From an uncultured Actinomycetota bacterium (GTDB lineage Bacteria > Actinomycetota > Humimicrobiia > Humimicrobiales > Humimicrobiaceae): a stretch of 43,424 nucleotides of DNA. Of the stretch, positions 3,080-19,210 are shown piece after piece. Numbering within the stretch: position 1 is the stretch's first letter; the number at the start of each line of letters is the position of its first letter. The stretch is from positions 1 to 43,424 of the forward strand of contig CAZODG010000002.1 of NCBI GenBank assembly GCA_964578525.1, written 5' to 3'. Position numbers and translations under genes: made by a program. The notes under the pieces were generated by a model. It was given only the letters and a program-made list of their open reading frames with translations. It was not told where the DNA came from and searched no databases.

Positions 3080-3493
3080 ATATTCTTTCTATATGAACTG
3101 CAACACATAATAAATACTGTGCGTGACTCATTCCAACATACGCCATTTTTAAAGATTCTTTGGTTCTTGACTTTGCTTTACCCGTGGCTATATTTCCTTT
3201 AAAAAACTCTTTCAACCTTTGAGATTCATAAGAAATACTTTCTCTTTTTTTATACTATCATTATGGTAATACGTTTCCAGATAAAGGGTCGCTAAATGTG
3301 TTTACCCTTTAATTGAATGAATTGTTGCAACTTCGACTTCCAATCCATCAGACTCAAAGATATTTATTGTTTTTTTATTAGTTGTTTGTTCATTTTCTGA
3401 AATAATACATAAATTATTGTAGTTAACATTTAAAAACTCCTTATTTTTTTGTGAAATTTCTGTTACCTCAAAAACACTATGTAGCATTAGCAA
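3080..3493 (-). pseudogene. Remnant of a UvrD/PcrA-like helicase C-terminal domain
   Basis: The ORF ends ...EVEVATIHSIKG*. It continues past the stop as THLATLYLETYYH, and in another frame as KMAYVGMSHAQYLLCVAVH. These resemble SF1 helicase motif V/VI regions (TIHxxKG ... YVGxTRA..xL). There is no N-terminal ATPase part, and there are several stops and frame changes. Confidence 0.45.
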
Positions 3494-3553
3494 GAGTTTT
3501 TTCTTTGATATTCCTAACGTAGTCTGCTAAATTTACAAGGATGCTTTAATGAC

Positions 3554-3760
3554 TTAGTCTTCAAGAATGAAAGTGACTCTCATTAAAATTCTGTATTCAG
3601 CAATTTTACCCTCATTGTCTACTATAACTTCAAAATCTTTTAGCCACGCGGACTTGACATTTTTAAGGGTTTTGTTCGCGCGGACTATGCCTTCCTTTAT
3701 TGCATCATCGAAGCTTGTGGGAGAAGATACTTTAACTTCAGTTACTTTTGCAATTGACAT
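3554..3760 (-). CDS. Dodecin-family flavin-binding protein
   Basis: 68 aa. KVTEVKVSSPTSFDDAIKEGIVRANKTLKNV...F.V...G.I.EY...M.V.F matches the dodecin pattern (V.GSS..S..DA...A...A.KTLRN). Confidence 0.8.
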   Translation of the reverse strand: MSIAKVTEVKVSSPTSFDDAIKEGIVRANKTLKNVKSAWLKDFEVIVDNEGKIAEYRILMRVTFILED

Positions 3761-3852
3761 TTGCAGTCTCCTTTCTTATTCTATAAAGTTTATTTTACTT
3801 TATAACAAATGATAAATACCTGCAATTTCTATTTTTGTTTTCCTCCTTTATT

Positions 3853-3880
3853 TTTACAAATTGCTTTTTAGTGTTAAAAT
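3853..3880 (+). promoter_or_regulatory. Sigma70-type promoter (TTTACA-N16-TGtTAAAAT), cassette copy 1
   Basis: -35 TTTACA at 3853-3858, a 16-nt spacer, and an extended -10 TGtTAAAAT ending at 3880, about 90 nt upstream of the HEAT gene start. 30 of 33 nt are identical to 9921-9953. Confidence 0.5.
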
Positions 3881-3970
3881 TTTCCGCATAGGGTAAATAA
3901 AAAAAACATAAAGAAAGAAACCAATCTTAAAATTAAAAAGAAAATAATTAACACAATAGGAGATATTAAA

Positions 3971-4195
3971 ATGGAAGTATCTGATGTGCTAAAAATGCAA
4001 ATACATAAAGATGTTAAAGGATTAATTAAGGCTTTAAAGGATAAAGATTGGCGTGTCCGAATTTGGATAGTAGGAGCTCTTGGGGAGACAAGAGATAAAA
4101 GGGCGATAGAATCTCTCACTCAGGCTTTAAAGGATGAAAATAGCATTGTCCGAAGTCTTGCAGAAGAGGCTCTTGAGAAGATAAAAGGAGGATAG
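3971..4195 (+). CDS. HEAT-repeat (PBS-lyase HEAT-like) protein, short
   Basis: Repeats of [28 protein letters not shown] aggag lies 8 nt before the ATG. Confidence 0.75.
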   Translation: MEVSDVLKMQIHKDVKGLIKALKDKDWRVRIWIVGALGETRDKRAIESLTQALKDENSIVRSLAEEALEKIKGG

Positions 4196-4252
4196 AATCA
4201 CTCGCTAAGGTTTAAAGGATGAAGATAGAGATGTCCGAAAGGAGGTGTGAAT

Positions 4253-4657
4253 ATGGGAATATCTGGCGGACCAAATATCGAGGAATTGAAAGTAAATAAA
4301 GATGTCGAAGGATTGATCAACGCTTTAAAGGATAAAGATCCAATGATCCGAGGGGATGCAACAGAGGTTCTTGGGAAGATAGGAGACAGCCGGGCGGTAG
4401 AACCTCTTATTGAGGCTTTAAAGGATATTGTCCGAGAAATTGCAATAGAGTCTCTTAGGAAGATAGGAGAGCCTGCTGTGGAGTCTCTAATTAAAGCTTT
4501 AAAGGATAAAGATACCCTTATCCGAAGTGGTGCTGCTAAGGCTCTTGGAAAGATAGGAGATAAAAGAGCTGTAGAATCTCTAACTGAGGCTTTAAAGTAT
4601 GGAGATATCTTTGTCCGAAGTGCGGCAGCAGAGGCTCTCGAGAAGATAAAAGGGTGA
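4253..4657 (+). CDS. HEAT-repeat (PBS-lyase HEAT-like) protein
   Basis: Four or more ALKDKD..(I/V)R..AA.ALGKIGD.RAVE.L repeats. The ATG at 4253 sits 7 nt after a perfect SD (aaGGAGG, 4241-4245). The ORF track starts two codons earlier at GTG 4247. Confidence 0.8.
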
Positions 4658-4719
4658 TAGAACCACTCGCTAAGGCTTTAAAGGATAAAGATAGCGATGT
4701 CCGAAGGGAGGTGTGTAAA

Positions 4720-4992
4720 ATGAAAAGTGGAGAGATAAAATGTTCTAAATGTGGGAAGATCATAGGTCAGTTACCCACTACAATTGCCGAAGATATCAGG
4801 CGCGGTGGAGGAATGGTGACCGGAGGGAATTCCCTTGATATACCGATGTATAAGTGCACCATCTGCCCCAGTTGTGGAAATGTATTCTGCGACAGTTGCC
4901 AAAGACCAAGCCCTGATCCATGCCCTAAATGTGGCAAAAGTAATTTAAGGCCAGGTTTTGCAGATTTAGTAATGCAATATTACAAGGGGTAA
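4720..4992 (+). CDS. Cys-rich zinc-ribbon protein (an alternative GTG start at 4654 adds one HEAT repeat)
   Basis: CSKCGK...CTICPSCGNVFCDSC...CPKCGK gives four CxxC pairs. The ATG at 4720 is preceded by GGGAGG at an 8-nt spacing. The in-frame extension from GTG 4654 encodes [19 protein letters not shown]. Confidence 0.6.
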   Translation: MKSGEIKCSKCGKIIGQLPTTIAEDIRRGGGMVTGGNSLDIPMYKCTICPSCGNVFCDSCQRPSPDPCPKCGKSNLRPGFADLVMQYYKG

Positions 4993-4999
4993 ATTAAAA

Positions 5000-5039
5000 A
5001 ATGATTTGTTGCTTAATTTAATATAAACAACAAATCATT
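5000..5039. terminator. Bidirectional intrinsic terminator between convergent genes
   Basis: Perfect 12-bp stem aatgatttgttg / caacaaatcatt with a 16-nt loop. It is flanked by an A-run on the left (a T-run for the minus-strand RRM gene) and T-rich sequence on the right. Confidence 0.6.
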
Positions 5040-5100
5040 ATTATGAAGAATTAAATCTACTACAAATCCTTTTAAAAAAGTCTTTGCATAGTTTTATTAT

Positions 5101-5358
5101 TTAATACCTTCTTTCGGTTCTTGGTCTTTGTGGAAGGGCTTCATCAACTTTTAAAGTACGACCTTCAAAGTCTGTGCCGTCTAAAGCTTCTTTGGCTTTT
5201 TCTGCTTCCGCATTATCTGACAGTTCAACAAAACCAAAACCTTTACTTCCAATTACATTAGCTGATTGAACCTTACCATGTGAGGAAAAAAGCTCTTCTA
5301 ATTGCTCATTAGTAACAGAATAGTTTAAATTCCCTACATATAGTTTGCTACCTTGCAT
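5101..5358 (-). CDS. RRM-type RNA-binding protein
   Basis: RNP-2 LYVGNL and RNP-1 KGFGFVE motifs. 85 aa with an R-rich tail. Strong SD aaaggagg upstream. Confidence 0.9.
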   Translation of the reverse strand: MQGSKLYVGNLNYSVTNEQLEELFSSHGKVQSANVIGSKGFGFVELSDNAEAEKAKEALDGTDFEGRTLKVDEALPQRPRTERRY

Positions 5359-5480
5359 ATTTACCTCCTTTCAAATGCTATCGTTTCTCTAAGCTTTACG
5401 ATATTTTATTTAGAGAGGTAACAGCGGGTAACAAATGGCTCTTAACTAAAATACTATCAAACAAAAGAGAGTTGCTAAAT

Positions 5481-5542
5481 AAAAAACCCCAAGTTATCTT
5501 TCACCATAACCTTACGACCTTAGGTTACTTAACACCTCGGGG
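5481..5542 (-). terminator. Long GC-clamped hairpin plus U6 (intrinsic terminator or 3' end of a small RNA)
   Basis: Minus strand reads CCCCGAGG...(inner hairpin TAACCT/AGGTTA)...CTTGGGG followed by TTTTTT. It lies about 260 nt downstream of the 5802..6203 gene and about 125 nt upstream of the RRM start codon. Confidence 0.5.
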
Positions 5543-5801
5543 CCTAATACTTTGGACTTCAATGACCTCATTTAGATTTTTTTCTCTTCCTGCATTCTTT
5601 CGTCTGCAAGCCTCAAATATTACCGAATACTGTCTCTATCCAAAGATTGGTCTAAATAATATCAGAAATTATAAGAATTGTCAAATAAATTATTTATAAA
5701 TGTTTTTATAATTATCTTTAAAATTTATTTTATTGTTTTATTAGGTTTATAACTTAAGCAAAAAGTATGCCTGGCATACGAATCTTCATCTTTGGTAAAA
5801 T

Positions 5802-6203
5802 TTATTTGCAATAGATTTTTTCTCCATTTCTGATTTCTTTTAATTCATTTATTTTTCCTATGTCTATAATATTACCAATAATTGTAACAGGACTGGCAGC
5901 CTGAGGTTTATCGCCCTGACTTGCAGGAGTTTTACCAAAAAAAATACATAATGCACTTCCGGGAGGCCAGAACGCTACTGTACCTATATCAACTTCTTCA
6001 ATACCATTTTCAATATCTGCCTTTAAAGGAATTGAAAAGTATATTTCGTCTCCCCATCTATTAACATTAGAGTCGATGGGCAGTATTTCAAGTAATTCTT
6101 TTGCCGTTTTTGTCTCATTTAATTGCACTTTGATATCAAGTTTGCCAATCAATAAATTTATAGTTTTTTTTATTTTATTATCATTTCCTGATTTTTTTTG
6201 CAT
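5802..6203 (-). CDS. Cyclophilin-like fold protein (TM1367-like family)
   Basis: RWGDEIYFSIP ... GTVAFWPPGSALCIFFGKTP...QAASPVTIIGNI closely follows the motif pattern of the TM1367-type cyclophilin-like family. Confidence 0.75.
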   Translation of the reverse strand: MQKKSGNDNKIKKTINLLIGKLDIKVQLNETKTAKELLEILPIDSNVNRWGDEIYFSIPLKADIENGIEEVDIGTVAFWPPGSALCIFFGKTPASQGDKPQAASPVTIIGNIIDIGKINELKEIRNGEKIYCK

Positions 6204-6322
6204 AATTACCTCTTTCTTCTAATAAAAATATTGTTATTTATATATAAAATGATAAGCCGCGTTATAAACTAAAAATGCCTAAAAAATGGTTTTAGATTAA
6301 AATGAATAAGCAAATGAGTTTG

Positions 6323-6730
6323 CTATTTTCTAAGTAGCGAAAAGTTCAGATCCGTTCCCGTGATTTCATTACCGTCGCCGTCGAGCATCAAGACTTCATC
6401 TTGAGAGACAACCTTGAGATATTGCTCGATGGAGCCATCGGATCTTAACAGCACTAATCTGCCTTCTTCGTCGATTTCCCAGCTGCCAGTCGAGATAAAA
6501 GGTTCTGAATCCGTACCCAGATAGGTAAATGAAAATGTATATGTCTTATCGGATTCTACAGATAGTTCCGCTTTAATCCCTTCACAGTCGGCGCATGGAA
6601 TCATACCTTCATAATTGCCAACAGCTTCATCTTTTTTGCAGCCTGATGCCAATATTCCAAGTAAAAATATAATCAGTAAAACAAAAGCAGTTAATTTTTT
6701 TATATTGCCGGACATAATGTTTCCTTTCAT
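6323..6730 (-). CDS. Lipoprotein with an NlpE N-terminal-like domain
   Basis: Lipobox LASGC. YEGMIPCADCEGIKAELSVESDKTY matches the NlpE-N CxxC motif (Y.G.LPCADC.GI...L.L). Confidence 0.65.
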   Translation of the reverse strand: MKGNIMSGNIKKLTAFVLLIIFLLGILASGCKKDEAVGNYEGMIPCADCEGIKAELSVESDKTYTFSFTYLGTDSEPFISTGSWEIDEEGRLVLLRSDGSIEQYLKVVSQDEVLMLDGDGNEITGTDLNFSLLRK

Positions 6731-6748
6731 TAAGCTACTTCCCCATAT

Positions 6749-7543
6749 TTATGATAATAGCGTGCTGTCTTCTGCAAATTCTTCACCGCTGACGTTGCCG
6801 AAACGCACCAGAAGATCCTCTACTGTAAGTTTTTGTTTTTCCTTCCCGCTTATCTCCAGAACAATCTGCCCTTCATACATCATTATCAGCCTGTCACCGT
6901 GCCTTATGGCATCGCGCATATTATGAGTCACCATCAGGGTGGTTAAATTATTTTCCTTAATGATCCTATCACTTAATCTTAGAACCTTTTGCGCGGTCTT
7001 GGGATCAAGCGCTGCCGCATGTTCATCCAAAAGCAAAAGCTTGGGTTTCTTTATTGTCGCCATCAGTAGCGTCAATGCCTGCCGCTGTCCACCCGAAAGC
7101 ATTCCTACTTTTATACTGAGACGGTTTTCAAGGCCCAGACCCAGCGTCCTGAGTAGTTCCCTGTACTCCTCACGCTCTTTATTGCTGATACCCCAGGAAA
7201 GGCCACGGCGCTTTCCACGCCGCAGGGCAAGGGCTAAATTCTCTTCGATACCCATATTTCCGGCCGTACCCATTATTGGATCCTGAAATACACGGCCCAG
7301 CACCTCGGCACGTTTATATTCGTTAAGATTCGTTACATCCTTACCATCAATTACTATCGAACCTTTATCCACAGGATATACACCCGCTACACAATTAAGC
7401 AGCGTAGATTTACCCGACCCGTTGCCGCCAATGAGTGTCACAAATTCACCTTTTTCAAGTTTAAGATTGACACTTTTCAGGGCTACCTTTTCATTTACAG
7501 TTCTGTGATTAAATATTTTGGTGACTTTTTTGACGTCAAGCAT
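6749..7543 (-). CDS. ABC transporter ATP-binding protein (PF04392-type uptake system)
   Basis: Walker A GGNGSGKST, signature LSGGQRQ, Walker B LLLLDEH. Directly abuts the permease gene. Confidence 0.9.
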   Translation of the reverse strand: MLDVKKVTKIFNHRTVNEKVALKSVNLKLEKGEFVTLIGGNGSGKSTLLNCVAGVYPVDKGSIVIDGKDVTNLNEYKRAEVLGRVFQDPIMGTAGNMGIEENLALALRRGKRRGLSWGISNKEREEYRELLRTLGLGLENRLSIKVGMLSGGQRQALTLLMATIKKPKLLLLDEHAAALDPKTAQKVLRLSDRIIKENNLTTLMVTHNMRDAIRHGDRLIMMYEGQIVLEISGKEKQKLTVEDLLVRFGNVSGEEFAEDSTLLS

Positions 7544-8437
7544 TTACTCTCCCCTTCTAAAAGACTTCTTTAATGGAACCAGATAAGAGCGGAATACCGG
7601 CAGGGAAAGAGCTACAGCTACGGTTATGGCTGTAAAAAGTTTTAAATCATTTGCGGGCATGCCCAGCCTGAGCACCACGGCAATGATGATACGGTAAGTG
7701 ATTGCACCAAGCGCCAGGGAGAGCAGCCGGACATAGAAGTTCTTTTTACCAAATAGAACTTCGCCTATAATAACAGATGCCAGGCCTATTACGATGGAAC
7801 CTATCCCCATCTGAATATCTGCAAAACTCTGGCTCTGCGCGATAAGCGCACCGCCGATAGCAACCAGGCCGTTACTGATCATGAGACCCAGTATAATCGT
7901 AGTGTTTGTATTGATACCCTGTGCACGGGCCATCTGAGGATTATCACCTGTTGCCCGTATTGCACAGCCTATTTCCGTTCCAAAAAACCAGTACAGGATA
8001 CCGGTAATGCTGCCGACAAAAATCAGCCCCAGTACAATTACAGAGCTCATGTGGTTCATTCCCATCTTTTCAAACACGGTATATGCGGTATCCACACGTA
8101 ATAGCGAAATGTTTGCCCTTCCCATTATCCGTAAATTGATTGAATACAGGGCAATCATTGTCAGGATTCCCGCAAGAAGCGAGGGAATTTTAAGTTTGGT
8201 GTGCAGCAGTCCGGTTATGAGACCAGCACTCAAGCCGCCAAGGAACGCCAGCAAAATTGCGAGATAAGCGTTAATGCCTTTGGTTATTGCAAATGCAGCA
8301 ATAGATGCACCCATAACGATACTGCCCTCGACTGTCAGGTCCGCAATAGTCAGGATGCGGTAAGTGATATAAACACCTATTGTTATAATCGCCCAGAGCA
8401 GACCAAGGGAAAGTGCTCCCATTAATATCTGCAGCAT
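7544..8437 (-). CDS. ABC transporter permease
   Basis: 297 aa, polytopic and hydrophobic. Contiguous with the ATPase gene (stop and start are adjacent). Confidence 0.85.
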   Translation of the reverse strand: MLQILMGALSLGLLWAIITIGVYITYRILTIADLTVEGSIVMGASIAAFAITKGINAYLAILLAFLGGLSAGLITGLLHTKLKIPSLLAGILTMIALYSINLRIMGRANISLLRVDTAYTVFEKMGMNHMSSVIVLGLIFVGSITGILYWFFGTEIGCAIRATGDNPQMARAQGINTNTTIILGLMISNGLVAIGGALIAQSQSFADIQMGIGSIVIGLASVIIGEVLFGKKNFYVRLLSLALGAITYRIIIAVVLRLGMPANDLKLFTAITVAVALSLPVFRSYLVPLKKSFRRGE

Positions 8438-8532
8438 ATCACTTGATCCATTCTTAAATTTTCGTCAGAGATCAATAGAAATAAAACTTCTATTAATCTC
8501 TGACGATATTATGTTAATCTTCGATAATTATA

Positions 8533-9513
8533 TTACTCTTCTTCGAGAATGTACTCGGTCAGATCAGCCGGAATCACAAGGCCAATCTCTTCGGCAACAA
8601 CACCATTGATTGCATAATCAAATTCGGTAGCCGATTCGATTGCCATTGTGGCAGGTTCTGCTTCGCCTTTTAAAATCTTAACAGCCATGAGGCCAGTCTG
8701 GTATCCAAGATCGTAATAATTAATTCCCAGTGTTGCCAGACCGCCAGCTATTACCATGCCGGACTCACCGCAGATTACCGGTGTTTTTGACTCTACTGTA
8801 ACTCCGTTTATCACGGGCATGGAAGATGCCAGTATATTATCGGTAGGAAGATAAAGCGCATCACAGTCTTGCACGATTGACTGAGCAGCCTGCTGCACAT
8901 CATTGGAATTAGTAATGGTAACTTCCGTATAGGTAAGGCCCATCTCCTCTATGACTGCTTTTGCGATTTCTGCCTGCACGATGGAATTATCCTCACTGGA
9001 AGTATAGATTACGCCTATAGTCTGGACATCCGGAACCAGTTTTACGAGTAATTCAATCTGTTCCCTGATTGGGTTCATGTCCGTGGTGCCACTGACATTA
9101 CCGCCGGGGGCTTCATTGGAATCCACAAGCTTAGCAGCTTCATAATCCGTAATAGCTGTTCCAAGTATGGGGATATCTTTTGTCTTGCCTGCAATGGACT
9201 GAGCCGCAGGTGTTGCGATAGCAAGTACCAGATCCACCTTGTTTGCAACAAAACGGTCACTGATGGTAGAAAGGTTGCTCTGGTCTGCCTGTGCATTCTG
9301 AAGATCAATTGTGATATTCTCGCCATCAACATAACCGTTGTCGGCAAGAGCATCGATAAATCCATCTCTGGCAGCATCCAGGGCGATATGTTCAACATAC
9401 TGGATAATACCTATCGTAGGATTTTTTGCTGCCTTGTCCTTACAACCTGATATTACCAGGGTAAAGGACATCACTAGCATGATAGCTAGTATGATAATTG
9501 CTGTTTTTTTCAA
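8533..9513 (-). CDS. ABC transporter substrate-binding lipoprotein (ABC_sub_bind / BMP-like family)
   Basis: Lipobox ISGC. IGIIQYVEH.ALD....GF...L...G fits the PF04392 family. TTG start with SD gaggagg 6 nt upstream. Confidence 0.85.
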   Translation of the reverse strand: MKKTAIIILAIMLVMSFTLVISGCKDKAAKNPTIGIIQYVEHIALDAARDGFIDALADNGYVDGENITIDLQNAQADQSNLSTISDRFVANKVDLVLAIATPAAQSIAGKTKDIPILGTAITDYEAAKLVDSNEAPGGNVSGTTDMNPIREQIELLVKLVPDVQTIGVIYTSSEDNSIVQAEIAKAVIEEMGLTYTEVTITNSNDVQQAAQSIVQDCDALYLPTDNILASSMPVINGVTVESKTPVICGESGMVIAGGLATLGINYYDLGYQTGLMAVKILKGEAEPATMAIESATEFDYAINGVVAEEIGLVIPADLTEYILEEE

Positions 9514-9560
9514 TTTAGCTCCTCCTCATTGTTTAATTCACAATTCTTAATAGTTATCTA

Positions 9561-9588
9561 ATTATAATGAAAAAAATTTTTATGTGAA
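9561..9588 (-). promoter_or_regulatory. Sigma70-type promoter of the ABC importer operon
   Basis: Minus strand reads TTCACA-N16-TATAAT, about 45 nt upstream of the TTG start. Confidence 0.55.
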
Positions 9589-9751
9589 TAGATATAAGAA
9601 TATTTGTATAAATGAGGTTTTTTGATGTTTTTGGTAGATTCTAAAAGATCAGGCTATTTCCGGGAAGTTTTTATTGCATTTATATCTGCCCTATTGATTA
9701 TTTTTTAATCTTCAAACAGAAGAAGATACTGCGGAATCAACAACTCATAGA

Positions 9752-9832
9752 TTTAGTCTATAAGCCGAGTTATAGACTAAAAATACTTAGAAGATGTGTT
9801 TAAGGTTGTAATAATAAAATAGATAATTATTA
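9752..9832. repeat. Intergenic repeat element, copy B, with a perfect 11-bp hairpin
   Basis: tttagtctata-agccgagt-tatagactaaa hairpin at 9752-9781. From the loop onward (9764-9813) it is near-identical to 473-522. Confidence 0.8.
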
Positions 9833-9922
9833 ACTTCAACATCAAGATTTCCGATAGATTTTATTTCTCTTACAATAATTCTTTTAATTGATCTTTCTTC
9901 TAATGAAATCACTTAAAGAGTT

Positions 9923-9950
9923 TTTATAAATTGCTCTTTAGTGCTAAAAT
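9923..9950 (+). promoter_or_regulatory. Sigma70-type promoter (TTTATA-N16-TGcTAAAAT), cassette copy 2
   Basis: Same architecture as 3853-3880 and 30/33 nt identity to it. It lies about 50 nt upstream of the TIR gene. Confidence 0.5.
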
Positions 9951-10000
9951 TTTTAAATATCCAAAAGAATCTTTAAATATTAGGGGTCAGACAGTATTTT

Positions 10001-11014
10001 ATGAAAAATGATACTTCCAAAATGTACACATATGACTTTGCAATTTCGTATGCAAGTGAGGAAGAAGAAATAGCCAGAAGAATTTCTCAGTCAATCAAAG
10101 AAAAAAATTGCGACTATGCAATCTTTTTTGCACCTAACGAGAGGGCTAAGCTGATTGGACAAGATGGAGAAAAGTTTTTTGAAAATTTATTTGCATATTC
10201 AAAACAAGTGATTGTTATATTATCTGAGAACTATAAGAGAAAAGAATGGCCAAGATATGAATGGGATATAATCAGAAAAAAAATTAAGGAGAATAGATTT
10301 TTTCCAATTAAAACTGATAATGTAGAAATCTTAGGTCTACCTTCAAGTTTTATTTACTATCGCTTCTCAAATAATTTTGAAGATATAGCTTCCTTATGTA
10401 TTGAAAAATTAATTTCCTTTGAACGCGAAATTGGAATTAAAAGAGAAACAGAGTTTCAAAAAATGGTAAAAGACTTACGCGAGTCAAGGGGCACAATTGA
10501 TAAATCTTTTCAATTAGTTGTTGATAAGAGACAGAGAACACCCCTTAAAGATATTAACTATCCAACAGATAATTATAATAAATCTTATAAAATCATTTCA
10601 GAAGAAAACCTGTCATTTTCAGTAATTTCCAGATTAAAAATAAAAATTGATTTACCTGATAACTTAAGTAAAGATGAGGTAGTTTTTAATATTAAACATT
10701 GTACTGCCTATATTTTTAATAACAAAAAACCTGATGCTTTAGCTATATTTATATATTCCTCAAAATCTAAAAATTTTCAAGATTTCGGAAAGTTTAATGT
10801 AGCAAGGGCTGAATTTGCACCTTTTGGTGATTGGGGAAAAGCTGAAGAAGGATTTGTATACAATTTACCTTCGGATAAATTTGAATGGAAGATAGAATTC
10901 GAGGAAAGCTATTTTGATAAAAGTAAAAAAATGAAAACAGCAGATGAATTAGCTAGAGATTTGATTCTTGAAATACTAAAAAACAAACATAAAGAGAATG
11001 ATACATCTAAATAA
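10001..11014 (+). CDS. TIR-domain protein with an uncharacterised C-terminal domain of about 200 aa
   Basis: N-terminus YDFAISYASEE..IA..I...L (TIR beta-A) and VIVILSENYKRKEWPRYEWDII (S.NY..S.W...E motif). The predicted catalytic Glu is E87, codon 10259-10261. Residues from about 140 to 337 match nothing I recognise. Confidence 0.8.
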   Translation: MKNDTSKMYTYDFAISYASEEEEIARRISQSIKEKNCDYAIFFAPNERAKLIGQDGEKFFENLFAYSKQVIVILSENYKRKEWPRYEWDIIRKKIKENRFFPIKTDNVEILGLPSSFIYYRFSNNFEDIASLCIEKLISFEREIGIKRETEFQKMVKDLRESRGTIDKSFQLVVDKRQRTPLKDINYPTDNYNKSYKIISEENLSFSVISRLKIKIDLPDNLSKDEVVFNIKHCTAYIFNNKKPDALAIFIYSSKSKNFQDFGKFNVARAEFAPFGDWGKAEEGFVYNLPSDKFEWKIEFEESYFDKSKKMKTADELARDLILEILKNKHKENDTSK

Positions 11015-11052
11015 AAGACTTTTTACCTTAATTATTCATTTTCATTATTATT

Positions 11053-11138
11053 AGGAGAGGGAGGGATTCGAACCCCCGGAGGACAAAGCCCTCAACAGTT
11101 TTTAAGACCGCCGCATTCGACCACTCTGCCACCTCTCC
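11053..11138 (-). tRNA. Type-II (long variable arm) tRNA, anticodon UAA, so tRNA-Leu(UAA)
   Basis: Minus strand reads GGAGAGG-TG-GCAG..TGC-G-GCGGT-CUUAAAA-ACUGU-(variable arm GAGGGC-UUU-GUCCUC)-GGGGG-TTCGAAT-CCCTC-CCTCTCC. The cloverleaf folds by hand. There is no encoded CCA. The discriminator is U. Confidence 0.85.
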
Positions 11139-11238
11139 AACACTCCATAGGAGTGTTTGCATTAAGTTATCACAATCTTAAATAAACATAAATATTTTAA
11201 TTTTTAATATTTATAATTTTTCAGAATACTACCTAAAA

Positions 11239-12456
11239 TTATTCGATAAAGGTTATATATTTTAATGTGTTTGGATTAAATTTAGTATTATCTTTTAGAT
11301 ATTTATTAATCGATTTTCTTAATATTTCCTCAAGGCTATTTAAGTCTTCAAAATTTGGGATTAAAATTTTTTCACCGTGTAATATATCACTTCTTAAGTT
11401 ATAACTTTTTAAAACTAAATCAAAGATTTTTTTTCTTTCTGAATTATTGTCTTTGAGCAAAAATGCAGTTCTAATAGCAAGTTTATATTGTAGCTCTTGA
11501 TTTATATCTTTCAGGAATAAAGCTTCTAATCCTATAATAAAATCTATTAGTTTATTAATTAAATTCTGATTGTTAATACCACTATCAAACCTCTGAACTG
11601 CGATATTAAAATTATTCTCTTTAATTATTTTTAAATTTTTATAAATATTTTGAAACTTCTTTAAATCTGCAGAAGAGAATTCAAAAACTTCATCAAATAA
11701 CAGATTTCGTTCTGTAGTTGAAATGCTATGAAAGTCTTTATAAAAGCTTACTACGAAAGAATATATATTGTTACCTAAAAAAACTCCCGATCTCCTCATA
11801 ATTCTTAAACTTTTTATTACATTTTTAAATGTTTCTCTTGATATATTATTCTCATCATATAGTTCTTTGTTTCTTTCTAAGTTAACACTTTTTATAGCAT
11901 TATCGTTTTCAACAATTATTTTTTTTAACCTATATTTCCTTTCTAGAACTGTGGAAAAATATATTTCATATAGAGGAAAAGGATATAAAACATCCATATT
12001 ATAGTCATCTATAATATGGATATCTTTTAAAAAATCAGGATCATTCCTAATATAAAAACTATCATCTATATGAATACATTCTTGCTCTAATTTGAAATTA
12101 AATAATCTAGCCTTATCAATCATTTCAAAGTATTCTGAATAAAATAAATCTTCAAATAGGATATAAAAATTTTTGAAATTTGCTTTATTAAGTTTTTTAT
12201 TAATTATTTCATTAATAAAATCAAATATTATATCTGTATAATCAAAAACCTGTTTTTCCATAGGGTAAATTATTTTATTAATGAAAGTTGATATTTTTTG
12301 ATCTTTTTTTAATTCTTCTAAAAATTCTTTATATTCATTCAATTGTATTATTGTTGAATTAAAAAATTTAAAATCTGAAACTTCAGACTTAAATATAGAC
12401 TTAGTTTTTTGATATAATTTGTAAGCTTTTTCAAATAATCTATTGTTTCTTACCAT
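11239..12456 (-). CDS. Protein with a C-terminal HEPN-like domain (Rx4H) and an unknown N-terminal region of about 290 aa
   Basis: The C-terminal region of about 110 aa reads IDFIIGLEALF...ELQYKLAIRTAFLL...IFDLVLKSYNLRSDILHGE. R355-x4-H360 (11377-11394) fits the HEPN RNase motif as seen in Apea-like and MAE_28990-like HEPN families. No Walker motif. Confidence 0.6.
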   Translation of the reverse strand: MVRNNRLFEKAYKLYQKTKSIFKSEVSDFKFFNSTIIQLNEYKEFLEELKKDQKISTFINKIIYPMEKQVFDYTDIIFDFINEIINKKLNKANFKNFYILFEDLFYSEYFEMIDKARLFNFKLEQECIHIDDSFYIRNDPDFLKDIHIIDDYNMDVLYPFPLYEIYFSTVLERKYRLKKIIVENDNAIKSVNLERNKELYDENNISRETFKNVIKSLRIMRRSGVFLGNNIYSFVVSFYKDFHSISTTERNLLFDEVFEFSSADLKKFQNIYKNLKIIKENNFNIAVQRFDSGINNQNLINKLIDFIIGLEALFLKDINQELQYKLAIRTAFLLKDNNSERKKIFDLVLKSYNLRSDILHGEKILIPNFEDLNSLEEILRKSINKYLKDNTKFNPNTLKYITFIE

Positions 12457-12477
12457 CTTAAATTCTCAGAATAAGTT

Positions 12478-13572
12478 TTAATACATTGTTATTACTCTTA
12501 ATATTTTTTGCTCTGGTATATATTCTAGTGAAACTAAAAACTTTATTATCTCCCCTGTATCACCAGCTATGACTTCAATTTGTATATTAAATTTTGTTGT
12601 ACTATGTTCCACATCATATTCCATATTATAGATATAATTATCCTTAATCTTGCTTCTAATTAATCCTTGAAGTTCTTTAATATTTATGTCCAACATGCAA
12701 CCTTTTTTAAATTTGCCACTTTTTTCCCCAAGTAAATATTTTAATTTACCTTCTTCTATTAGTATTTCAAAATCATCAATATTAAAAATAGTTCTTGAAA
12801 TGGTATTTAGGGAAAACAATGTATCTTCTTCAAAACCCTTATATACTTTACGTTCAATCTTATAAGATAGAAATAGATCAAAATACATCCCAGGCAAACT
12901 AATACAAGTATAGCCATTTTCTTCGAATGGGTAACCACGCATGTTAAAGTTTTTAGATTCTTCAACATCATCTTCGTGTCCCATTATTATATTACTTTTA
13001 TTTTTTATAAAATCATTGATTACTGTCATTGACGCATAAGTTTTCATATAGCTAGAGTTTGTCACATCAATAAAACCGACATATGGTTTAAAACTCTTAA
13101 GACCTTCATTCATCTTATTAAACATATTAATTGTCATGTTATTTATATATACAAAAAATAGTAAACTACTATGTATGTAAGTAAAATCTTTAACTAATAT
13201 TATTGATTCAGCAAACTTTTCATATAAAAAATCTTGACTCTTATTATGATTAATAAAATCTCCAGCCAGTACACTATGAGAACTTCGCTTATCAAGTAAG
13301 GGTATTATCTTTTCAAATACTGGGTATCCATAAAAAGATGAGTCTATTTCTTTGCTATTAAAAACAAAAATAATTTCTAAACGATCCAAACTTGGAGTTA
13401 AACAGCTTTTTAAATTCTGATATTCTATTCCTTTTATTCGCAAAATCTCAACTGTTTTTTGAAATGCATTATTTATTTCAAAATACATCTGTTCATGGTT
13501 AAGATTAAAATAACTAGCTATAACCTCAAGCATTACATTATCTCTTCCATTTATTGTAAATATAGTACTCAT
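12478..13572 (-). CDS. Hypothetical protein, no recognisable domain (upstream partner of the HEPN gene)
   Basis: 364-aa ORF ending 21 nt before the HEPN gene start on the same strand. No P-loop, TM or nuclease motif identified. Confidence 0.65.
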   Translation of the reverse strand: MSTIFTINGRDNVMLEVIASYFNLNHEQMYFEINNAFQKTVEILRIKGIEYQNLKSCLTPSLDRLEIIFVFNSKEIDSSFYGYPVFEKIIPLLDKRSSHSVLAGDFINHNKSQDFLYEKFAESIILVKDFTYIHSSLLFFVYINNMTINMFNKMNEGLKSFKPYVGFIDVTNSSYMKTYASMTVINDFIKNKSNIIMGHEDDVEESKNFNMRGYPFEENGYTCISLPGMYFDLFLSYKIERKVYKGFEEDTLFSLNTISRTIFNIDDFEILIEEGKLKYLLGEKSGKFKKGCMLDINIKELQGLIRSKIKDNYIYNMEYDVEHSTTKFNIQIEVIAGDTGEIIKFLVSLEYIPEQKILRVITMY

Positions 13573-13657
13573 TTTCTTTAAAAATATTAATAAAGCCCTT
13601 GATTCTACTACATTATACTACTACCCTCCCCATAATTAATAATTCAAAACTATTTTT

Positions 13658-14533
13658 ATGAACCAATACATTGATTATTTCTTAAATTACTTACAAACAG
13701 AAAAAGACGCTGCAAAATCCACAATTCATAAATACAGAGCTGATTTAGAAAGATTATTTGAATATTTACAAGTAACTGATATTAATGAAATTAATCAAAA
13801 TCATTTAAGAGATTATTTAAATCATATCAGACAAACTTATAGCTACACTTCAAGTTCAATTGCAAATAAGATTAATATATTACATCACTTTTTCAGGTTT
13901 CTTGATAATTCCGGTTACATAAAAATCAACCCTGCTATTTTAATTAGACCACCAAGAAAAAAAGTTAAAATTCCAAAAGTATTTAATGATATTGAACTTG
14001 AAAAATTCTTAAGTGCAACTGAACACAATACCTATACCAAATATAAAAAATATGCTTTACGAGATAAATTAATCTTTACAATGTTTGCTTATACTGGACT
14101 GAGGCGAACTGAACTTATTAACCTAAACTGGAATGATATTAATTTAGGAAATAGGTATTTAATTGTAAGAAAATCTAAAAATAAAAATCAAAGAATAATA
14201 CCGCTTCATGATAAGATTCTTGAGTTATTGGATAAATATTTATCTGAAAGACTGCCTTTAAAAAATAATGCCTTATTTATCGGCAGAACAGTACAGTGTA
14301 TTCATCATAACAGTTTAAAAAATCTATTTGACCGGTATATTAAAATTGCAGGGCTTTCTGGTAAAGGCTTTACAATTCATACTTTAAGACATACTTTTGC
14401 AACAAGATTACTCAATAAAGATGTAAGCCTTGTTAATATTAAGAATTTGATTGGTCATAGAAGTTTAGAATCGACACAGATTTACTTACATGTAACTGGA
14501 AAAGAGTTGGAAGAATCAATAAAGATGCTCTAA
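13658..14533 (+). CDS. Tyrosine site-specific recombinase (XerC/XerD-like integrase)
   Basis: N-terminal SAM-like core-binding domain (YLQTEKDAAKSTIHKYRADL). Catalytic residues in GLRRTEL, HTLRHTFAT and GHRSLESTQIYLHV (R-H-R-Y). Confidence 0.9.
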   Translation: MNQYIDYFLNYLQTEKDAAKSTIHKYRADLERLFEYLQVTDINEINQNHLRDYLNHIRQTYSYTSSSIANKINILHHFFRFLDNSGYIKINPAILIRPPRKKVKIPKVFNDIELEKFLSATEHNTYTKYKKYALRDKLIFTMFAYTGLRRTELINLNWNDINLGNRYLIVRKSKNKNQRIIPLHDKILELLDKYLSERLPLKNNALFIGRTVQCIHHNSLKNLFDRYIKIAGLSGKGFTIHTLRHTFATRLLNKDVSLVNIKNLIGHRSLESTQIYLHVTGKELEESIKML

Positions 14534-14538
14534 TTATT

Positions 14539-15135
14539 TTATTTTTTGGTATTTGTCTTGGTTTCTCCCTTAAAGGTCATTACCCCATCTACTTTTATGG
14601 TGAATATATTTTTAAATTCTTTTTCAATCATATTTAAATAATCATCGATCTCTCTTTTTATACTAATCTCATTGAAAAGAAAGTTTAAATTATCTTTTAT
14701 GTCTATTAGTAATCCTGGATTGAACTTCTTTAAATTATCAATTAAGATTCTAATGCTATTTTTGTAATATAGGTATGTACTAAAATAAACATCAATCTCA
14801 TTTATTGAAATTTTATTTAATTTTAATAATCTTCCTAGTTTTGATAAAAATAATATCAATCTATAGCTTCTTTTATTTATATCTTCGTTGTATTTGTCAC
14901 CCTTAAATTCTTCCTTTGCAAAATCTTCAAAAAATTTTAAATGATCATTTACAAACTCATCTCTTAGAATAAAACCTAAGTTATTTTGATCCTCAATTTC
15001 TTTATTTTTCCTATCTAATGCCCTATCAGTTAAATAATCTCTAAATTTATAAAAAGCAATTACCGCTGTTGCTGTAACAATAGCAGCCATAAAAATTGTA
15101 CCAAATCCTGTTAAAATATTCGGCCAGTTCAACAT
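14539..15135 (-). CDS. Membrane-anchored hypothetical protein (last gene of the R-M-vsr operon)
   Basis: Single N-terminal TM helix (ILTGFGTIFMAAIVTATAVIAFY) followed by about 165 aa of charged helical-looking sequence. It starts 14 nt after the vsr stop. Confidence 0.6.
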   Translation of the reverse strand: MLNWPNILTGFGTIFMAAIVTATAVIAFYKFRDYLTDRALDRKNKEIEDQNNLGFILRDEFVNDHLKFFEDFAKEEFKGDKYNEDINKRSYRLILFLSKLGRLLKLNKISINEIDVYFSTYLYYKNSIRILIDNLKKFNPGLLIDIKDNLNFLFNEISIKREIDDYLNMIEKEFKNIFTIKVDGVMTFKGETKTNTKK

Positions 15136-15149
15136 TTACTGCCCTCTTT

Positions 15150-15638
15150 TTAGTTTCTTTTAGTATATAAATCTATAACTCTACTCAGAGTTTCAATAAA
15201 GTTTTTATTAATTTCACATTCCCATATTACTAGAACAGCCCAACCTATGTTTTCAAGTCTTTTTATTTTTAATCTATCTCGTTCTTTGTTTCTTTTAAAT
15301 TTTTTTACCCAGAATTCTCTGTTTTCTTTTGGTAGTCTCAGATTACATTTTGGACACCTATGCCAAAAACAACCATTGATAAATATGGCTATCTTTAATC
15401 TAGGAAAACAGATATCAGGTCTACCAGGGACTTCCTTCCAACTTGTTCTATAGCCTCTAATACCTTCGGCGAATAAGGCTCGACGTAAACTAAGCTCAGG
15501 TTTTGTATTCTTAGAGACATTGCCTTTCATCGACTTTGAGACATTTTTTGAAGAAGCTTTTGGTGAAGGGCCTAAGAAAACTGACATCTTCTCTCGAAAA
15601 ATAAGATTGCCTTTTGCCCTTATATCAGACATATGCAA
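15150..15638 (-). CDS. vsr: Very-short-patch repair endonuclease
   Basis: SKNTKPELSLRRAL...G.RGYR and GRPDICFPRLKIAIFINGCFWHRC are hallmark Vsr motifs. Confidence 0.9.
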   Translation of the reverse strand: MHMSDIRAKGNLIFREKMSVFLGPSPKASSKNVSKSMKGNVSKNTKPELSLRRALFAEGIRGYRTSWKEVPGRPDICFPRLKIAIFINGCFWHRCPKCNLRLPKENREFWVKKFKRNKERDRLKIKRLENIGWAVLVIWECEINKNFIETLSRVIDLYTKRN

Positions 15639-15639
15639 A

Positions 15640-16902
15640 TTATACTCTCTGTATTACTTTTGAATCAGAATATTTATAATTTACCCCATTCTCTAATAAT
15701 TCTGATAATTTTTGTCCAATTCTTTCTATTAATCCTACTACTAATGCATTCCCCATACAGAAATAACGCCATTTTAAAGGCATGCCTGTATCAGTCCAGC
15801 TATCTGGAAAACCATTTAGCCTTTCAGCTTCTAATGGGGTTATTATTCTTAACCGACCATTCTCGGGATCTCTAAGAACATGAGTAAACCTATTGGGTTT
15901 TTTATTCCCTTCATTTGTAATAAGAGTACGTGATGGTCTGTCTAATCTATCTGGAAAAGTTATTGCACCTTCTTTATAATTATAACTATAGCCGCTTTTT
16001 GAAGTCCTGATTTCATTTTTTGCACCTTTGTGATATTTCCAAGAATCAATTTCTTCCTCAGGTAGGTAATAGTATTCATCAACTTCATTTTCTAATATCT
16101 CACCTAAACAATGTTGGTTTTCTAATATTGGATTTACTGTTTTAGTATATATGTTCCCTCTCAACATTAGCCCTGCATTATGAAAATCATATTTAAACTC
16201 TTCCGTGATTTTTACTAAATCACCAGTTAAGGTTACATTTTCATCTAAGCTATTCAAAGTCAAACTTTTATATTTCGTTTCTTGCACTGGAAATGCCCTT
16301 CCAAAAAAACCATTCTTTTCAATTATGTCATACTTATCTATACCATTTTCATAAAGGTTTTTTAGAGGACTCTCAAATAATGATGCTAGAATAAAAACCC
16401 TAAACCTTCTTTGTGGAAAGCCATAGTCTGAAGAGTTGATTACTCTCCATTCTACATTATAGTCTAGATTGTTTAAGCAACTTAAAATAACACCAAAATC
16501 TCTACCCCTTTTATTAGAAGGTGAGCGCAAAAGACGATCTACATTCTCAAGCAATACTAATGGTGGACGTAAGCTCTCAAGTATATGATATATCTCCCAC
16601 CAAAGAACTCCCTTTTTACCTTTTATTCCTTTAGCATTAGTCGCGGCAACTGAGTAATCTTGGCAAGGGAACCCACCTACTAAAAGATCGTGTGGGGGAA
16701 TATTATATTTTTCTTTAGCTATATCAATATTTGTGTGACCTTCTTTACCAAAGTGCGATATATAACACTCAGAAGCATATTGGTCTTTCCTTTTAGGTTC
16801 CCATTGATTCGAATATATTGTTCTCCAACCACTTTTTCCTAATCCTAACCTAAAACCACCGACACCTGCAAAAAGCTCACAGATTGTTTTTAAACTCTTC
16901 AA
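15640..16902 (-). CDS. dcm: DNA (cytosine-5)-methyltransferase
   Basis: Motif I ELFAGVGGF, motif IV GGFPCQDYS (catalytic C80), motif VI ENV, motif VIII QRRFRVFI, motif X GNALVVGL. Confidence 0.95.
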   Translation of the reverse strand: MKSLKTICELFAGVGGFRLGLGKSGWRTIYSNQWEPKRKDQYASECYISHFGKEGHTNIDIAKEKYNIPPHDLLVGGFPCQDYSVAATNAKGIKGKKGVLWWEIYHILESLRPPLVLLENVDRLLRSPSNKRGRDFGVILSCLNNLDYNVEWRVINSSDYGFPQRRFRVFILASLFESPLKNLYENGIDKYDIIEKNGFFGRAFPVQETKYKSLTLNSLDENVTLTGDLVKITEEFKYDFHNAGLMLRGNIYTKTVNPILENQHCLGEILENEVDEYYYLPEEEIDSWKYHKGAKNEIRTSKSGYSYNYKEGAITFPDRLDRPSRTLITNEGNKKPNRFTHVLRDPENGRLRIITPLEAERLNGFPDSWTDTGMPLKWRYFCMGNALVVGLIERIGQKLSELLENGVNYKYSDSKVIQRV

Positions 16903-17783
16903 AATAACTCTCCAGATGAAAAATAATCTTTAAAGTACTCTTTTAAATCCTTATTGCTTATAGGTGATACTCCCTGCCTTGATAAATTAGAGCAAACTTT
17001 TGAAAACGTTATAAAACCTAATAAAAACCCAATGATACTAATATGTGTCAATGCATTATTGACTCTACCTACTTTTCCGTTCCAACTTTTCTTTTTTTTA
17101 ATAATATCGCGGTAATAGTATTTACAATCTTCATTCCACATTAAAAGCTCATTATAATATAGAAAACCTTCAAGGCTTAATCCTCCCCATATCGTATGAC
17201 ATTTATTTTCTAAGTAATTCAATATTCTCTCATCTGGATTATATTTATAGAAAGACTTTTGATTTACCGAACCCTTATTAATTATTTCTTTCTCTATATC
17301 CTTATCAATATACAAATCCACATATTTAGTATTAAAGTTATCTAATTTTAAATAATCTATCATAAAAGCCATTCTATATAATAATATAACAATTATTTCG
17401 AATACTTCTATTTTATTGGAATCTATAATCTTTTTAAAATTTTCATTCATAATATCCCATATATCCCTAAAACTCATATCACTTAACCATGATAAACTCT
17501 TTTCAACATAAGCTCTTGGTCTAAAATCCCAAGGTCTTTCCGCGTCACCTTTTCTTGAAGATTCTTTTCCAGGGTATTGGATAAAAAATTTTTCGCTGGA
17601 ACTGGTTTCGTGAATCAATAATTGTCTCTCTCTATTTCCATACTCAAGATGACTTCTATCTAAATTTTCTATCCATTCGATATTAGCTACTCTACGCTTG
17701 TATGAGTCACCCTTTTTACTACAATTTTGCAACGGTGAAACTAATAGACTCTTTATGTAATCCTCGTTTATGTTATCTTTCAT
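16899..17783 (-). CDS. Putative type II restriction endonuclease (assigned by context only)
   Basis: 294-aa orphan ORF whose stop overlaps the methyltransferase start by 4 nt. I could not locate a clear PD-(D/E)xK, HNH or GIY-YIG motif. Confidence 0.45.
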   Translation of the reverse strand: MKDNINEDYIKSLLVSPLQNCSKKGDSYKRRVANIEWIENLDRSHLEYGNRERQLLIHETSSSEKFFIQYPGKESSRKGDAERPWDFRPRAYVEKSLSWLSDMSFRDIWDIMNENFKKIIDSNKIEVFEIIVILLYRMAFMIDYLKLDNFNTKYVDLYIDKDIEKEIINKGSVNQKSFYKYNPDERILNYLENKCHTIWGGLSLEGFLYYNELLMWNEDCKYYYRDIIKKKKSWNGKVGRVNNALTHISIIGFLLGFITFSKVCSNLSRQGVSPISNKDLKEYFKDYFSSGELF

Positions 17784-17849
17784 AAATATTTTTTTCTTAA
17801 AACTTATCTTTTATAAAGAAAAAGTATCAATTGGCCCCATCAAATTAAT

Positions 17850-19207: not shown

Positions 19208-19210
19208 ATT

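Follow-up and report, generated by a model that had tools for sequence, protein, structure and literature searches.

What does a TIR-domain gene do when no partner gene accompanies it? This question is raised by one open reading frame (ORF) in a 43,424-nucleotide stretch of DNA from an uncultured Actinomycetota bacterium (contig CAZODG010000002.1); the whole stretch is referred to here as the window. The original prediction, made from the DNA letters alone, described the product as a TIR protein with an unrecognisable C-terminal domain and no partner gene, and proposed that it could be a single-gene TIR system. The ORF was found exactly as stated there, at 10001-11014 on the plus strand, with an ATG start and a length of 337 aa. 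Analyses of the protein, of its homologues, and of their genomic neighbourhoods led us to favour, on balance, a single-protein defence against invaders that would act by hydrolysing NAD+. An AlphaFold2 (AF2) model of the full-length protein gave a mean predicted local distance difference test score (pLDDT) of 84 and a predicted template modelling score (pTM) of 0.77. The features of the gene and its product are as follows.

10001-11014, plus strand: gene of the TIR / DUF4875-like protein, 337 aa (ORF list, ATG start), monocistronic by layout
10037-10384, plus strand: TIR domain, residues 13-128 (Pfam TIR_2, Foldseek, family profile against the PDB)
10247-10261, plus strand: WxxxE motif (W83-P-R-Y-E87) with the candidate catalytic glutamate (invariance, alignment with AbTir and BtpA)
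10376-10540, plus strand: helical linker, residues ~126-180 (AF2 helices 126-144, 151-162, and 165-174; conservation)
10541-10930, plus strand: distant DUF4875-like alpha/beta domain, putative sensor/docking module, residues ~181-310 (pLDDT >90, profile search)
10940-11008, plus strand: C-terminal amphipathic helix, residues ~314-336 (AF2 helix 314-336; alignment)
11053-11138, minus strand: tRNA-Leu(UAA), island-borne and convergent with the TIR gene (ARAGORN; Rfam tRNA, 55.3 bits)

With a divergent upstream gene at a distance of 487 bp and a convergent tRNA downstream, the TIR gene was taken to be monocistronic. This layout alone speaks for the promoter of its own that had been attributed to the gene, but the motif scan does not: sigma-70-like promoter matches were about as frequent as chance predicts for such AT-rich DNA (11 found vs 11.4 expected). 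A terminator scan found none. The tRNA does separate the TIR gene from the next protein gene, as had been noticed, and its anticodon is TAA.

The N-terminal TIR domain

Residues 13-128 are predicted, from sequence profiles and from the model, to form a genuine TIR domain. Pfam TIR_2 (PF13676) was matched by these residues with E=2.7e-11 and 44.5 bits (curated cutoff 28), over profile positions 1-116 of 122. Both of the hallmarks that had been pointed out earlier are present in the sequence, namely YDFAISYA (residues 10-17) and SENYKRKEWPRYEW (residues 75-88), the latter containing the candidate catalytic residue E87 (codon at nt 10259-10261). Across a 48-member family alignment, E57, F60, F64, S75, Y78, W83, E87, D89, I91, G112, and S115 are invariant. 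When the family profile was compared with the PDB, AbTir, BtpA/TcpB, and one related TIR were matched at E=4e-7 to 8e-5. The family consensus 'KKeWtRYEwD' was thereby aligned with 'KKDWTNYELD' of AbTir and 'SKQWPARELD' of BtpA, and we take the WxxxE positions aligned with E87 to be the catalytic glutamates of these two proteins.

The AF2 model agrees with this assignment. Of the 46 PDB matches that Foldseek returned at E<=1e-3, almost all are TIR domains; AbTir (7uxu) ranks first (target-normalised TM score 0.75, root-mean-square deviation 3.4), ahead of MyD88, TIR-STING, and BtpA, and the flavodoxin-like TIR fold was thus recovered. The TIR assignment and the candidacy of E87 as the catalytic residue are well supported, because the TIR_2 match, the invariant W83 and E87, the alignment with AbTir and BtpA, and the structural match all point the same way. 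From the sequence, we infer that the domain has NAD+-hydrolysing (NADase) activity.

The C-terminal half: a linker and a DUF4875-like domain

The C-terminal ~200 aa are predicted, again by profile and model, to consist of a family-specific helical linker and a distant DUF4875-like domain. The term "unrecognisable" was apt in so far as Pfam is concerned: with residues 136-337 of 32 family members, no family was matched, and only weak winged-helix matches were seen in the tails of methanogen proteins. It was not apt for the core, since residues ~181-310 belong to a widespread, distantly DUF4875-like family. When modelled alone, the C-terminal half reached a pLDDT of 85, and >90 over the core. 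The predicted fold comprises three helices (~126-175), a beta-beta-alpha-beta-beta-alpha-beta sandwich (~197-300), and a terminal helix. Conserved residues of the linker in the 48-member alignment are E141, R148, G164, Q171, D175, R177, and R179. The linker is confined to the TIR-fused family, as the alignment with remote homologues begins only at profile position ~50. The C-termini vary in the alignment: the helix at ~314-336 is missing in many homologues, and methanogen variants carry a winged-helix-like extension.

An exhaustive HMMER search with the C-terminal profile against 1.84 billion representatives yielded 423 representative clusters at E<=1e-3, of which 116 were found at E<=1e-10. 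Matches outside the TIR family cover only profile positions ~50-180, corresponding to residues ~185-315 of the protein. These relatives are lipoproteins, or zinc-ribbon or bPH proteins that carry transmembrane segments and have the domain facing outward, and SH3_3, SHOCT, or TM2 modules often co-occur in them. None of their co-occurring Pfam families suggests catalysis, except for a peptidyl-prolyl isomerase (PPIase) domain in a single member. The domain aligns unambiguously with these relatives at 24-37% identity through the motifs Y..R..VPxGLSK..N.KH..AY..FAPxGDW..YF, and the only residues invariant across the wider domain family are R, G, and Y. DUF4875 itself (PF16175) was matched by 11/33 domain-only segments of the remote homologues (best E=5e-5), which in turn match the C-terminal profile at E=1e-25 to 1e-9. 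The window protein did not match PF16175 as a full protein, as residues 136-337, or as residues 181-310, even at E<=0.1-1. A literature search found no paper on DUF4875. Short matches that seemed to cover the full profile (P0156-P0166) were considered as new architectures and rejected; they are members of the same TIR family with a truncated N-terminus.

The Foldseek comparison of an AlphaFold model of this half, which the original prediction had proposed, gave no functional assignment but did give a fold resemblance. The searches of the PDB and BFVD produced no confident functional match, and the best PDB match was 4lg3 (E=0.01, probability 1.0, TM 0.37-0.41, 123 aligned columns). This entry (DESPIG_00776) is an uncharacterised structural-genomics protein listed as 'DUF487...'. 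Sequence-profile searches of the PDB with the C-terminal profiles found nothing, and the domain profile does not reach 4lg3. DHHA-like (E=0.03-0.3) and EEP-like fold matches were also obtained for the C-terminal half; with TM <0.3, they were not used.

Spread of the architecture in bacteria and archaea

A search of 5.8 billion proteins found 117 homologous clusters, nearly all 300-390 aa long and with 85-100% query coverage. They show 40-64% identity and a patchy distribution that takes in many bacterial phyla as well as methanogenic archaea. As the full-length architecture is conserved in ~117 clusters across phyla at this level of identity, it has therefore apparently spread horizontally as one unit. 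Nineteen full-length loci came from a scan that covered one genome per species. The bacterial loci are from Cloacimonadota, Bacteroidota, Aminicenantes, Dehalococcoidales, Pirellulales, Longimicrobiales, and Rhodothermales; the archaeal loci are from Methanospirillum, Methanocorpusculum, Methanophagaceae, and Thermoplasmatales. Complete genomes with the gene include Methanospirillum lacunae Ki8-1 (NZ_CP176093.1) and Methanocorpusculum (OY781078.1), and L002 is a Wenyingzhuangia homologue.

A few members depart from this layout. The methanogen copies P0056, P0060, P0067, and P0070 (Methanolacinia, Methanospirillum, and related organisms) have a ~60-aa C-terminal tail with weak winged-helix matches, and P0110 has an extra C-terminal extension of ~270 aa. 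In P0117, a TIR domain of this family is fused to an unrelated C-terminal region of ~300 aa; because the TIR is the same and the C-terminal region is not, this fusion fits a fixed TIR effector with exchangeable sensors. On the Methanocorpusculum chromosome OY781078.1 (L006:9959-10951), the homologue is split into ORFs of 81 aa and 217 aa and may be a frameshifted pseudogene or reflect a sequencing error.

Homologue neighbourhoods and the search for a partner

The original statement that the TIR gene has no partner gene was borne out. Within 3 kb of the TIR gene at 26 loci (E<=0.01; ORFs >=50 aa), no neighbour was found in more than 3 loci, and when all neighbouring ORFs of the 19 full-length loci were clustered, only the TIR gene itself was common to them. 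The genes that neighbour the TIR gene in the window were sought at the 19 distant TIR loci using tblastn, and none was present. Profile scans detected no SIR2/SLOG, cyclase, Argonaute, reverse transcriptase (RT), or STAND protein among the genes of the island in which the window gene lies, as had been stated. At locus L009, the gene order is BrxC, PglX, TIR, PglZ; the homologue was thus inserted, alone, between PglX and PglZ within a BREX operon.

The homologue neighbourhoods are rich in defence genes. Besides the BREX operon, type IIG/MmeI-like restriction-modification (R-M) genes are found near the homologues at L010 and L012, bSEFIR at L004, PDC-M30A at L003, Nmad2 at L011, and a DNA methylase at L001, and matches to MADS and BrxL were also obtained. 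Other contexts are rich in transposases or ORFans. An integrase adjoins the TIR gene in the window, L036, and L045; in L035 and L048, the TIR gene has transposase genes as neighbours.

Two sets of neighbours were considered as partners and rejected. SIR2_2 proteins are encoded near the TIR gene in 2/19 loci, adjacent and downstream in L019, and downstream but 1.8 kb away in L013. The L013 protein (470 aa) weakly matches the SIR2 core of the ThsA1 model (E=2e-7). Using PADLOC, the best model was Aga_SIR2 for the L019 protein and LmuA for the L013 protein, with ThsA1 second for the latter. The SLOG/STALD region was unmatched in both proteins, which do not cluster together. With heterogeneous SIR2 proteins at only two loci and weak SIR2-core matches, these neighbours were not retained as a conserved ThsA partner. 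The other candidates were the two genes beyond the tRNA in the window, which encode proteins of 405 aa and 364 aa. Both are absent from the 19 distant TIR loci (tblastn); in addition, L043 and L044 have the 405-aa gene but no TIR gene, and L036 has the TIR gene but no 405-aa gene. The 405-aa gene is therefore co-resident cargo and not an obligate partner.

A strain-specific island in the window

The TIR gene, described in the original prediction as standalone, is not isolated: it sits within an 8.5-kb strain-specific island together with an R-M module and an integrase.

9668-18145, unstranded: strain-specific low-GC island, defence/mobile hotspot, 8.5 kb (drop in guanine-plus-cytosine (GC) content, sister-strain comparison)

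Window positions 6318-9667 and 18146-30032 are 94-96% identical to the contig of a sister strain. Because these flanks match the sister strain while the cargo between them differs entirely, the region at 9668-18145 is a strain-specific island at a chromosomal hotspot. Its GC content is 23-33%, vs ~40-47% in the flanks. The gene order in the island is the TIR gene, tRNA-Leu(UAA), a 405-aa gene, a 364-aa gene, a tyrosine recombinase, a 198-aa ORF, Vsr, Dcm, and a 294-aa ORF. At the same site, the sister strain carries genes for an aldo-keto reductase, Gp49/HTH, an SLFN-like helicase/nSTAND3, a MazG-like protein, AIPR, BglII, and a methylase; its island is ~15 kb long (estimated from locus coordinates), vs 8.5 kb in the window strain. 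The hotspot (cf. L037, L042) is located between a gene for the substrate-binding protein (SBP) of an ABC transporter and an NPCBM_assoc/ABC-2 operon. Relatives of the IleRS and SBP at >=90% identity have source names that place the host as a metagenome-assembled genome labelled 'Actinomycetota bacterium'.

Close relatives at 85-88% protein identity show modular swapping of the island cargo. In L036, the TIR gene and the tRNA are retained and are followed by a 1243-aa gene and the same integrase; in L035, the tRNA is missing and a homologue of the 405-aa gene directly adjoins the TIR gene. In both contigs, a Peptidase_M78/helix-turn-helix (HTH) gene and a DUF4411 gene form a pair upstream of the TIR gene. 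The defence-island context (the integrase, Vsr/Dcm, and the ORFan pair) had thus been overlooked, as had the facts that the tRNA is island cargo and that the 405-aa neighbour adjoins the TIR gene in two close relatives.

The tRNA-Leu(UAA) is kept with the TIR gene in L036 and is absent in L035 and at the sister strain's site. TTA accounts for 57% of leucine codons in the island genes (55 per 1000 codons) vs 12% in the flanking core (11 per 1000). The high TTA usage in the island and the co-transfer of the tRNA with the TIR gene in L036 suggest that this tRNA supports the translation of AT-rich cargo.

Proposed function and alternatives

We regard it as somewhat probable that the protein is an abortive-infection NADase that acts alone against invaders, with the C-terminal domain sensing the invader and driving the clustering of the TIR domains. 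What leads to a single-protein defence is the combination of an intact invariant motif, a linked conserved module, and the spread of a lone gene in variable, defence-rich DNA. The TIR domain would be the effector, a NAD+ glycohydrolase using E87 of the WxxxE motif, and the linker and DUF4875-like domain would be the sensing and regulatory half. The resting protein would be inactive. On infection, the C-terminal module might bind an invader-derived and probably multimeric component, which would gather the TIR domains into a head-to-tail assembly with composite active sites; this step is proposed by analogy with SpbK, a TIR protein discussed below. NAD+ would then be depleted, and the infected cell would no longer support replication. 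A bolder version, possible but rather doubtful in our view, is that the linker and the DUF4875-like module form an unrecognised cytoplasmic pattern-recognition domain, derived from envelope ancestors, that detects a conserved feature of invaders across hosts. Actinomycetota, Bacteroidota, Planctomycetota, and methanogenic archaea are the hosts named for this version.

Several points weigh against an anti-invader NADase. The C-terminal relatives are extracytoplasmic (lipoproteins or membrane-anchored proteins) and give no independent pointer to the binding of a phage component. No copy of the TIR gene was found in the phage, plasmid, and viral-contig collections that were searched. TIR domains like those of AbTir and BtpA can yield cyclic ADP-ribose (cADPR) isomers, which would suit a signalling role instead of plain NAD+ depletion. 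Finally, the neighbourhood analysis that the original prediction had proposed brought many defence contexts and no shared partner, but the contexts of L046 and L047 are without recognisable defence genes.

The signalling capacity of such TIR domains leads to an alternative in which the protein is a ThsB-type sensor generating a signal in trans, either a cADPR isomer or histidine-ADP-ribose (His-ADPR), that activates an effector encoded elsewhere. This effector would be ThsA-like (SIR2/SLOG), Macro-TM, or caspase-like. AbTir and BtpA, the nearest TIR relatives, make cADPR isomers (literature summarised in PMC12847820), the two SIR2_2 genes described above are located downstream of the TIR gene, one with a resemblance to the ThsA1 core, and our view of the host genome spans only 43 kb. 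We nevertheless consider this arrangement unlikely: no ThsA-like gene is found in the window island, no effector is conserved across the 26 loci, the two SIR2 proteins are mutually dissimilar with the SLOG/STALD region unmatched, and both the BREX-operon insertion and the wide transfer of a lone gene fit poorly with dependence on an unlinked partner. The constant association of the TIR gene with mobile or variable DNA (next to the integrase or transposase genes named above) would also be expected of an island addiction or stabilisation toxin, a self-inhibited TIR NADase with its C-terminal half serving as a cis-antitoxin or degradation tag. The Peptidase_M78/HTH and DUF4411 pair of L035 and L036 presumably resembles modules of the toxin-antitoxin type. 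However, the integrase is not conserved with the TIR gene across distant loci, the BREX placement and the other defence neighbours point to defence, and no separate antitoxin gene is present, so that we give a stabilisation toxin little credence.

The roles of the two halves could instead be reversed, with the TIR domain as an oligomerisation or adaptor scaffold only, as in animal Toll-like receptor (TLR) signalling, and the C-terminal half as the effector, for example through binding or cleavage of nucleotides or nucleic acids. Conserved polar residues (R148, Q171, D175, R177, R179, R211, E226, N230, N240, and K243), the weak DHHA-type nucleotide-binding fold resemblance (E=0.03-0.3), and the winged-helix-like tail of methanogen variants agree with such an effector. 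An invariant glutamate in a WxxxE motif is unexpected for a pure scaffold, though, and the relatives of the domain are found in envelope lipoproteins with SH3, bPH, and zinc-ribbon modules, where one PPIase member is the only hint of catalysis. Moreover, the wider family retains only R, G, and Y as invariants, and the DHHA-like matches had TM <0.3. Of all the alternatives, we find this one the hardest to credit. A non-immune role, in which the protein would be an enzyme of NAD or nucleotide metabolism or an interaction factor and its island position incidental, would accommodate L046 and L047 and the fact that only 12/32 bacterial TIR proteins tested were active against phages in E. coli (PMC11350192). 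Against it stand the patchy, high-identity spread over many phyla and two domains of life, the strain-specific presence or absence at a hotspot, and the embedding in BREX and R-M loci, all of which are usual for defence genes and unusual for housekeeping enzymes. Such a role is thus improbable, about as much so as the stabilisation toxin.

If the favoured single-protein defence is correct, TIR-based immune proteins would gain a new sensor module, and the large DUF4875-like family, in which envelope proteins make up most of the >400 representative clusters, would gain a first functional handle. At ~1 kb, the gene would also be a compact TIR defence that works in bacteria as well as in methanogenic archaea, and so of use in studying the evolution of activation by clustering. 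Should the pattern-recognition version hold, the protein would be among the few one-protein TIR immune sensors common to bacteria and archaea, and the DUF4875-like superfamily would obtain its first function.

Other genes of the island and the second variable region

The remaining genes of the island are listed below.

11239-12456, minus strand: ORFan gene, 405 aa
12478-13572, minus strand: ORFan gene, 364 aa
13658-14533, plus strand: tyrosine recombinase, XerC/D-like, 291 aa (Pfam Phage_integrase, E=5e-37)
14539-15135: uncharacterised ORF, 198 aa
15150-15638, minus strand: Vsr, 162 aa (Pfam/NCBIfam, E=1e-36)
15640-16902, minus strand: Dcm C5-methylase, 420 aa (Pfam/NCBIfam, E=6e-64)
16899-17783, minus strand: ORF of 294 aa, possible restriction enzyme (4-nt overlap with the methylase gene; no family match)

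The last three genes, at 15150-17783 on the minus strand, look like a type II R-M operon with an unannotated restriction enzyme. The same 291-aa integrase was found at L036:7194-8069 (~85% DNA identity), L043:4761-5636 (L043/L044), and L045:5923-6798. It is oriented divergently to its cargo, which consists of the 364-aa and 405-aa pair, of the 1243-aa gene, or of a 423-aa gene with Abi_alpha and the 405-aa gene. This pairing of one integrase with cargo that changes from contig to contig suggests an integrase-associated slot for cargo swapping.

The 405-aa and 364-aa proteins have no match in Pfam, PADLOC, NCBIfam, or the PDB. Only two full-length relatives of the 405-aa protein were found in the search of 5.8 billion proteins. 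One, in L045, has the same layout as in the window. The other, in L043/L044, belongs to another integrase island, which carries Abi_alpha and a DpnII-type R-M system but no TIR gene; in L043, the 405-aa gene comes after the Abi_alpha gene, and the island abuts a cyclophilin-like gene of the same type as that at 5802-6203 in the window. An Rx4H-like motif, 'NLRSDILHG', near the C-terminus of the 405-aa protein (possible HEPN) was seen by eye only and was confirmed by no tool. The two genes are a candidate novel defence pair.

A conserved element of ~50 nt (GCCGAGTTATAGACTAAAAATACTTAAAAGATGTGTTTAAGGTTGTAATAA) is found at the borders of gene cassettes, at 473-541 and 9764-9832 in the window, at L035:2989-3044, and at L036:213-271 and 3300-3357. 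The two copies in L036 flank the module formed by DUF4411, M78/HTH, TIR, and tRNA-Leu, and both window copies are within strain-variable regions. The element matched no Rfam family at the gathering threshold, and folding z-scores of about -2 to 0 indicated no significant fold. Conceivably, the element serves the 291-aa integrase as a recombination site, or has a regulatory function.

The other window copy of the element lies in positions 1-6317, which have no similarity to the sister-strain contig and a GC content of 0.29-0.37; this is probably a second variable region. Within it, direct-repeat families D1-D6 with a ~90-nt period were observed at 3990-4710 on the plus strand, in ORFs 4247-4657 and 4654-4992, where the GC content is locally high (0.42). 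These ORFs look like a repeat protein with units of ~30 aa, possibly HEAT/PBS-like.

Comparison with known TIR systems

By the criteria of partner genes and fused domains, the window protein falls outside Thoeris, the CBASS/Pycsar effectors, SPARTA, retron-TIR, and PDC-S66. For CBASS/Pycsar, no cyclase was found among the neighbours, and the C-terminal model had no SAVED or STING match. SPARTA chains were matched through their TIR part only; the C-terminal model had no APAZ match, and no Argonaute was found among the neighbours. For retron-TIR, the NCBIfam model Retron_TIR_antiphage matched the TIR segment only, with 24.6 bits vs a cutoff of 600, and the island contains no RT. The sole PADLOC model matched was PDC-S66 (E=5.6e-10), with residues 3-100 aligned to profile positions 141-237 of 282. 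PDC-S66 is, like the window gene, a candidate single-gene TIR system, but its TIR domain is C-terminal and the remainder is unrelated.

Thoeris ThsB is an infection-sensing TIR protein with the same catalytic glutamate chemistry. ThsB proteins are typically ~200 aa long, with little besides the TIR domain. Thoeris is defined by an adjacent ThsA effector, whereas the window family is without a conserved one: no ThsA-type effector (SIR2-SLOG, TM-Macro, or another signal-binding type) was found in the window island, and none is conserved in the 26 loci. The ThsB of staphylococci senses the capsid (PMC12578639).

AbTir and BtpA (TcpB) have the TIR domains nearest to that of the window family, both in sequence profile (E=4e-7 to 8e-5) and in fold (target-normalised TM 0.67-0.75), and their WxxxE segment is near-identical. 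In these proteins, the TIR domain is at the C-terminus, after a coiled coil or other N-terminal regions, and they have been discussed as virulence factors or producers of cADPR isomers. They are not known to carry a DUF4875-like domain. The C-terminal core may share its fold class with 4lg3, and some of its remote sequence relatives match DUF4875 (PF16175); proteins of the DUF4875 type are lipoproteins or envelope proteins, whereas the window copy is predicted to be cytoplasmic and fused to a TIR domain.

The TIR / linker / DUF4875-like architecture appears to be undescribed. The same holds for its occurrence, at 40-64% identity, in both bacteria and methanogenic archaea, and for the incorporation of an envelope-type domain into a cytoplasmic TIR protein. 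The proposal of a single-gene TIR system remains tenable in that no partner is apparent; as a concept it is not new. One-protein TIR defences without a partner gene, dependent on a conserved active-site residue of the TIR domain, have been validated experimentally as protective against phages (PMC11350192). In those single proteins, which we compared by their description, the accessory part is TPR or there is nothing beyond a short TIR, and none is reported to be DUF4875-like. The general picture would stay as it is, since TIR NADase defences that consist of one protein and are activated by phage proteins have been established before.

By analogy, the best functional counterpart for the mechanism proposed here would be SpbK. 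Encoded on ICEBs1 of Bacillus subtilis, SpbK is a single-protein TIR NADase abortive-infection system whose non-TIR domain docks on the dodecameric phage portal YonE and thereby clusters the TIR domains (PMC12847820). No SpbK chain was among the PDB sequence or fold matches of the full protein or the C-terminal domain, the presence of SpbK in the searched PDB copy being unconfirmed. Like the window gene, SpbK is encoded by one gene on a mobile element and combines a TIR with a non-TIR domain, the latter recognising the invader in SpbK. The order of the parts differs: in SpbK, the sensor is N-terminal and the TIR domain C-terminal, whereas the window protein has an N-terminal TIR domain followed by an unrelated putative sensor domain.

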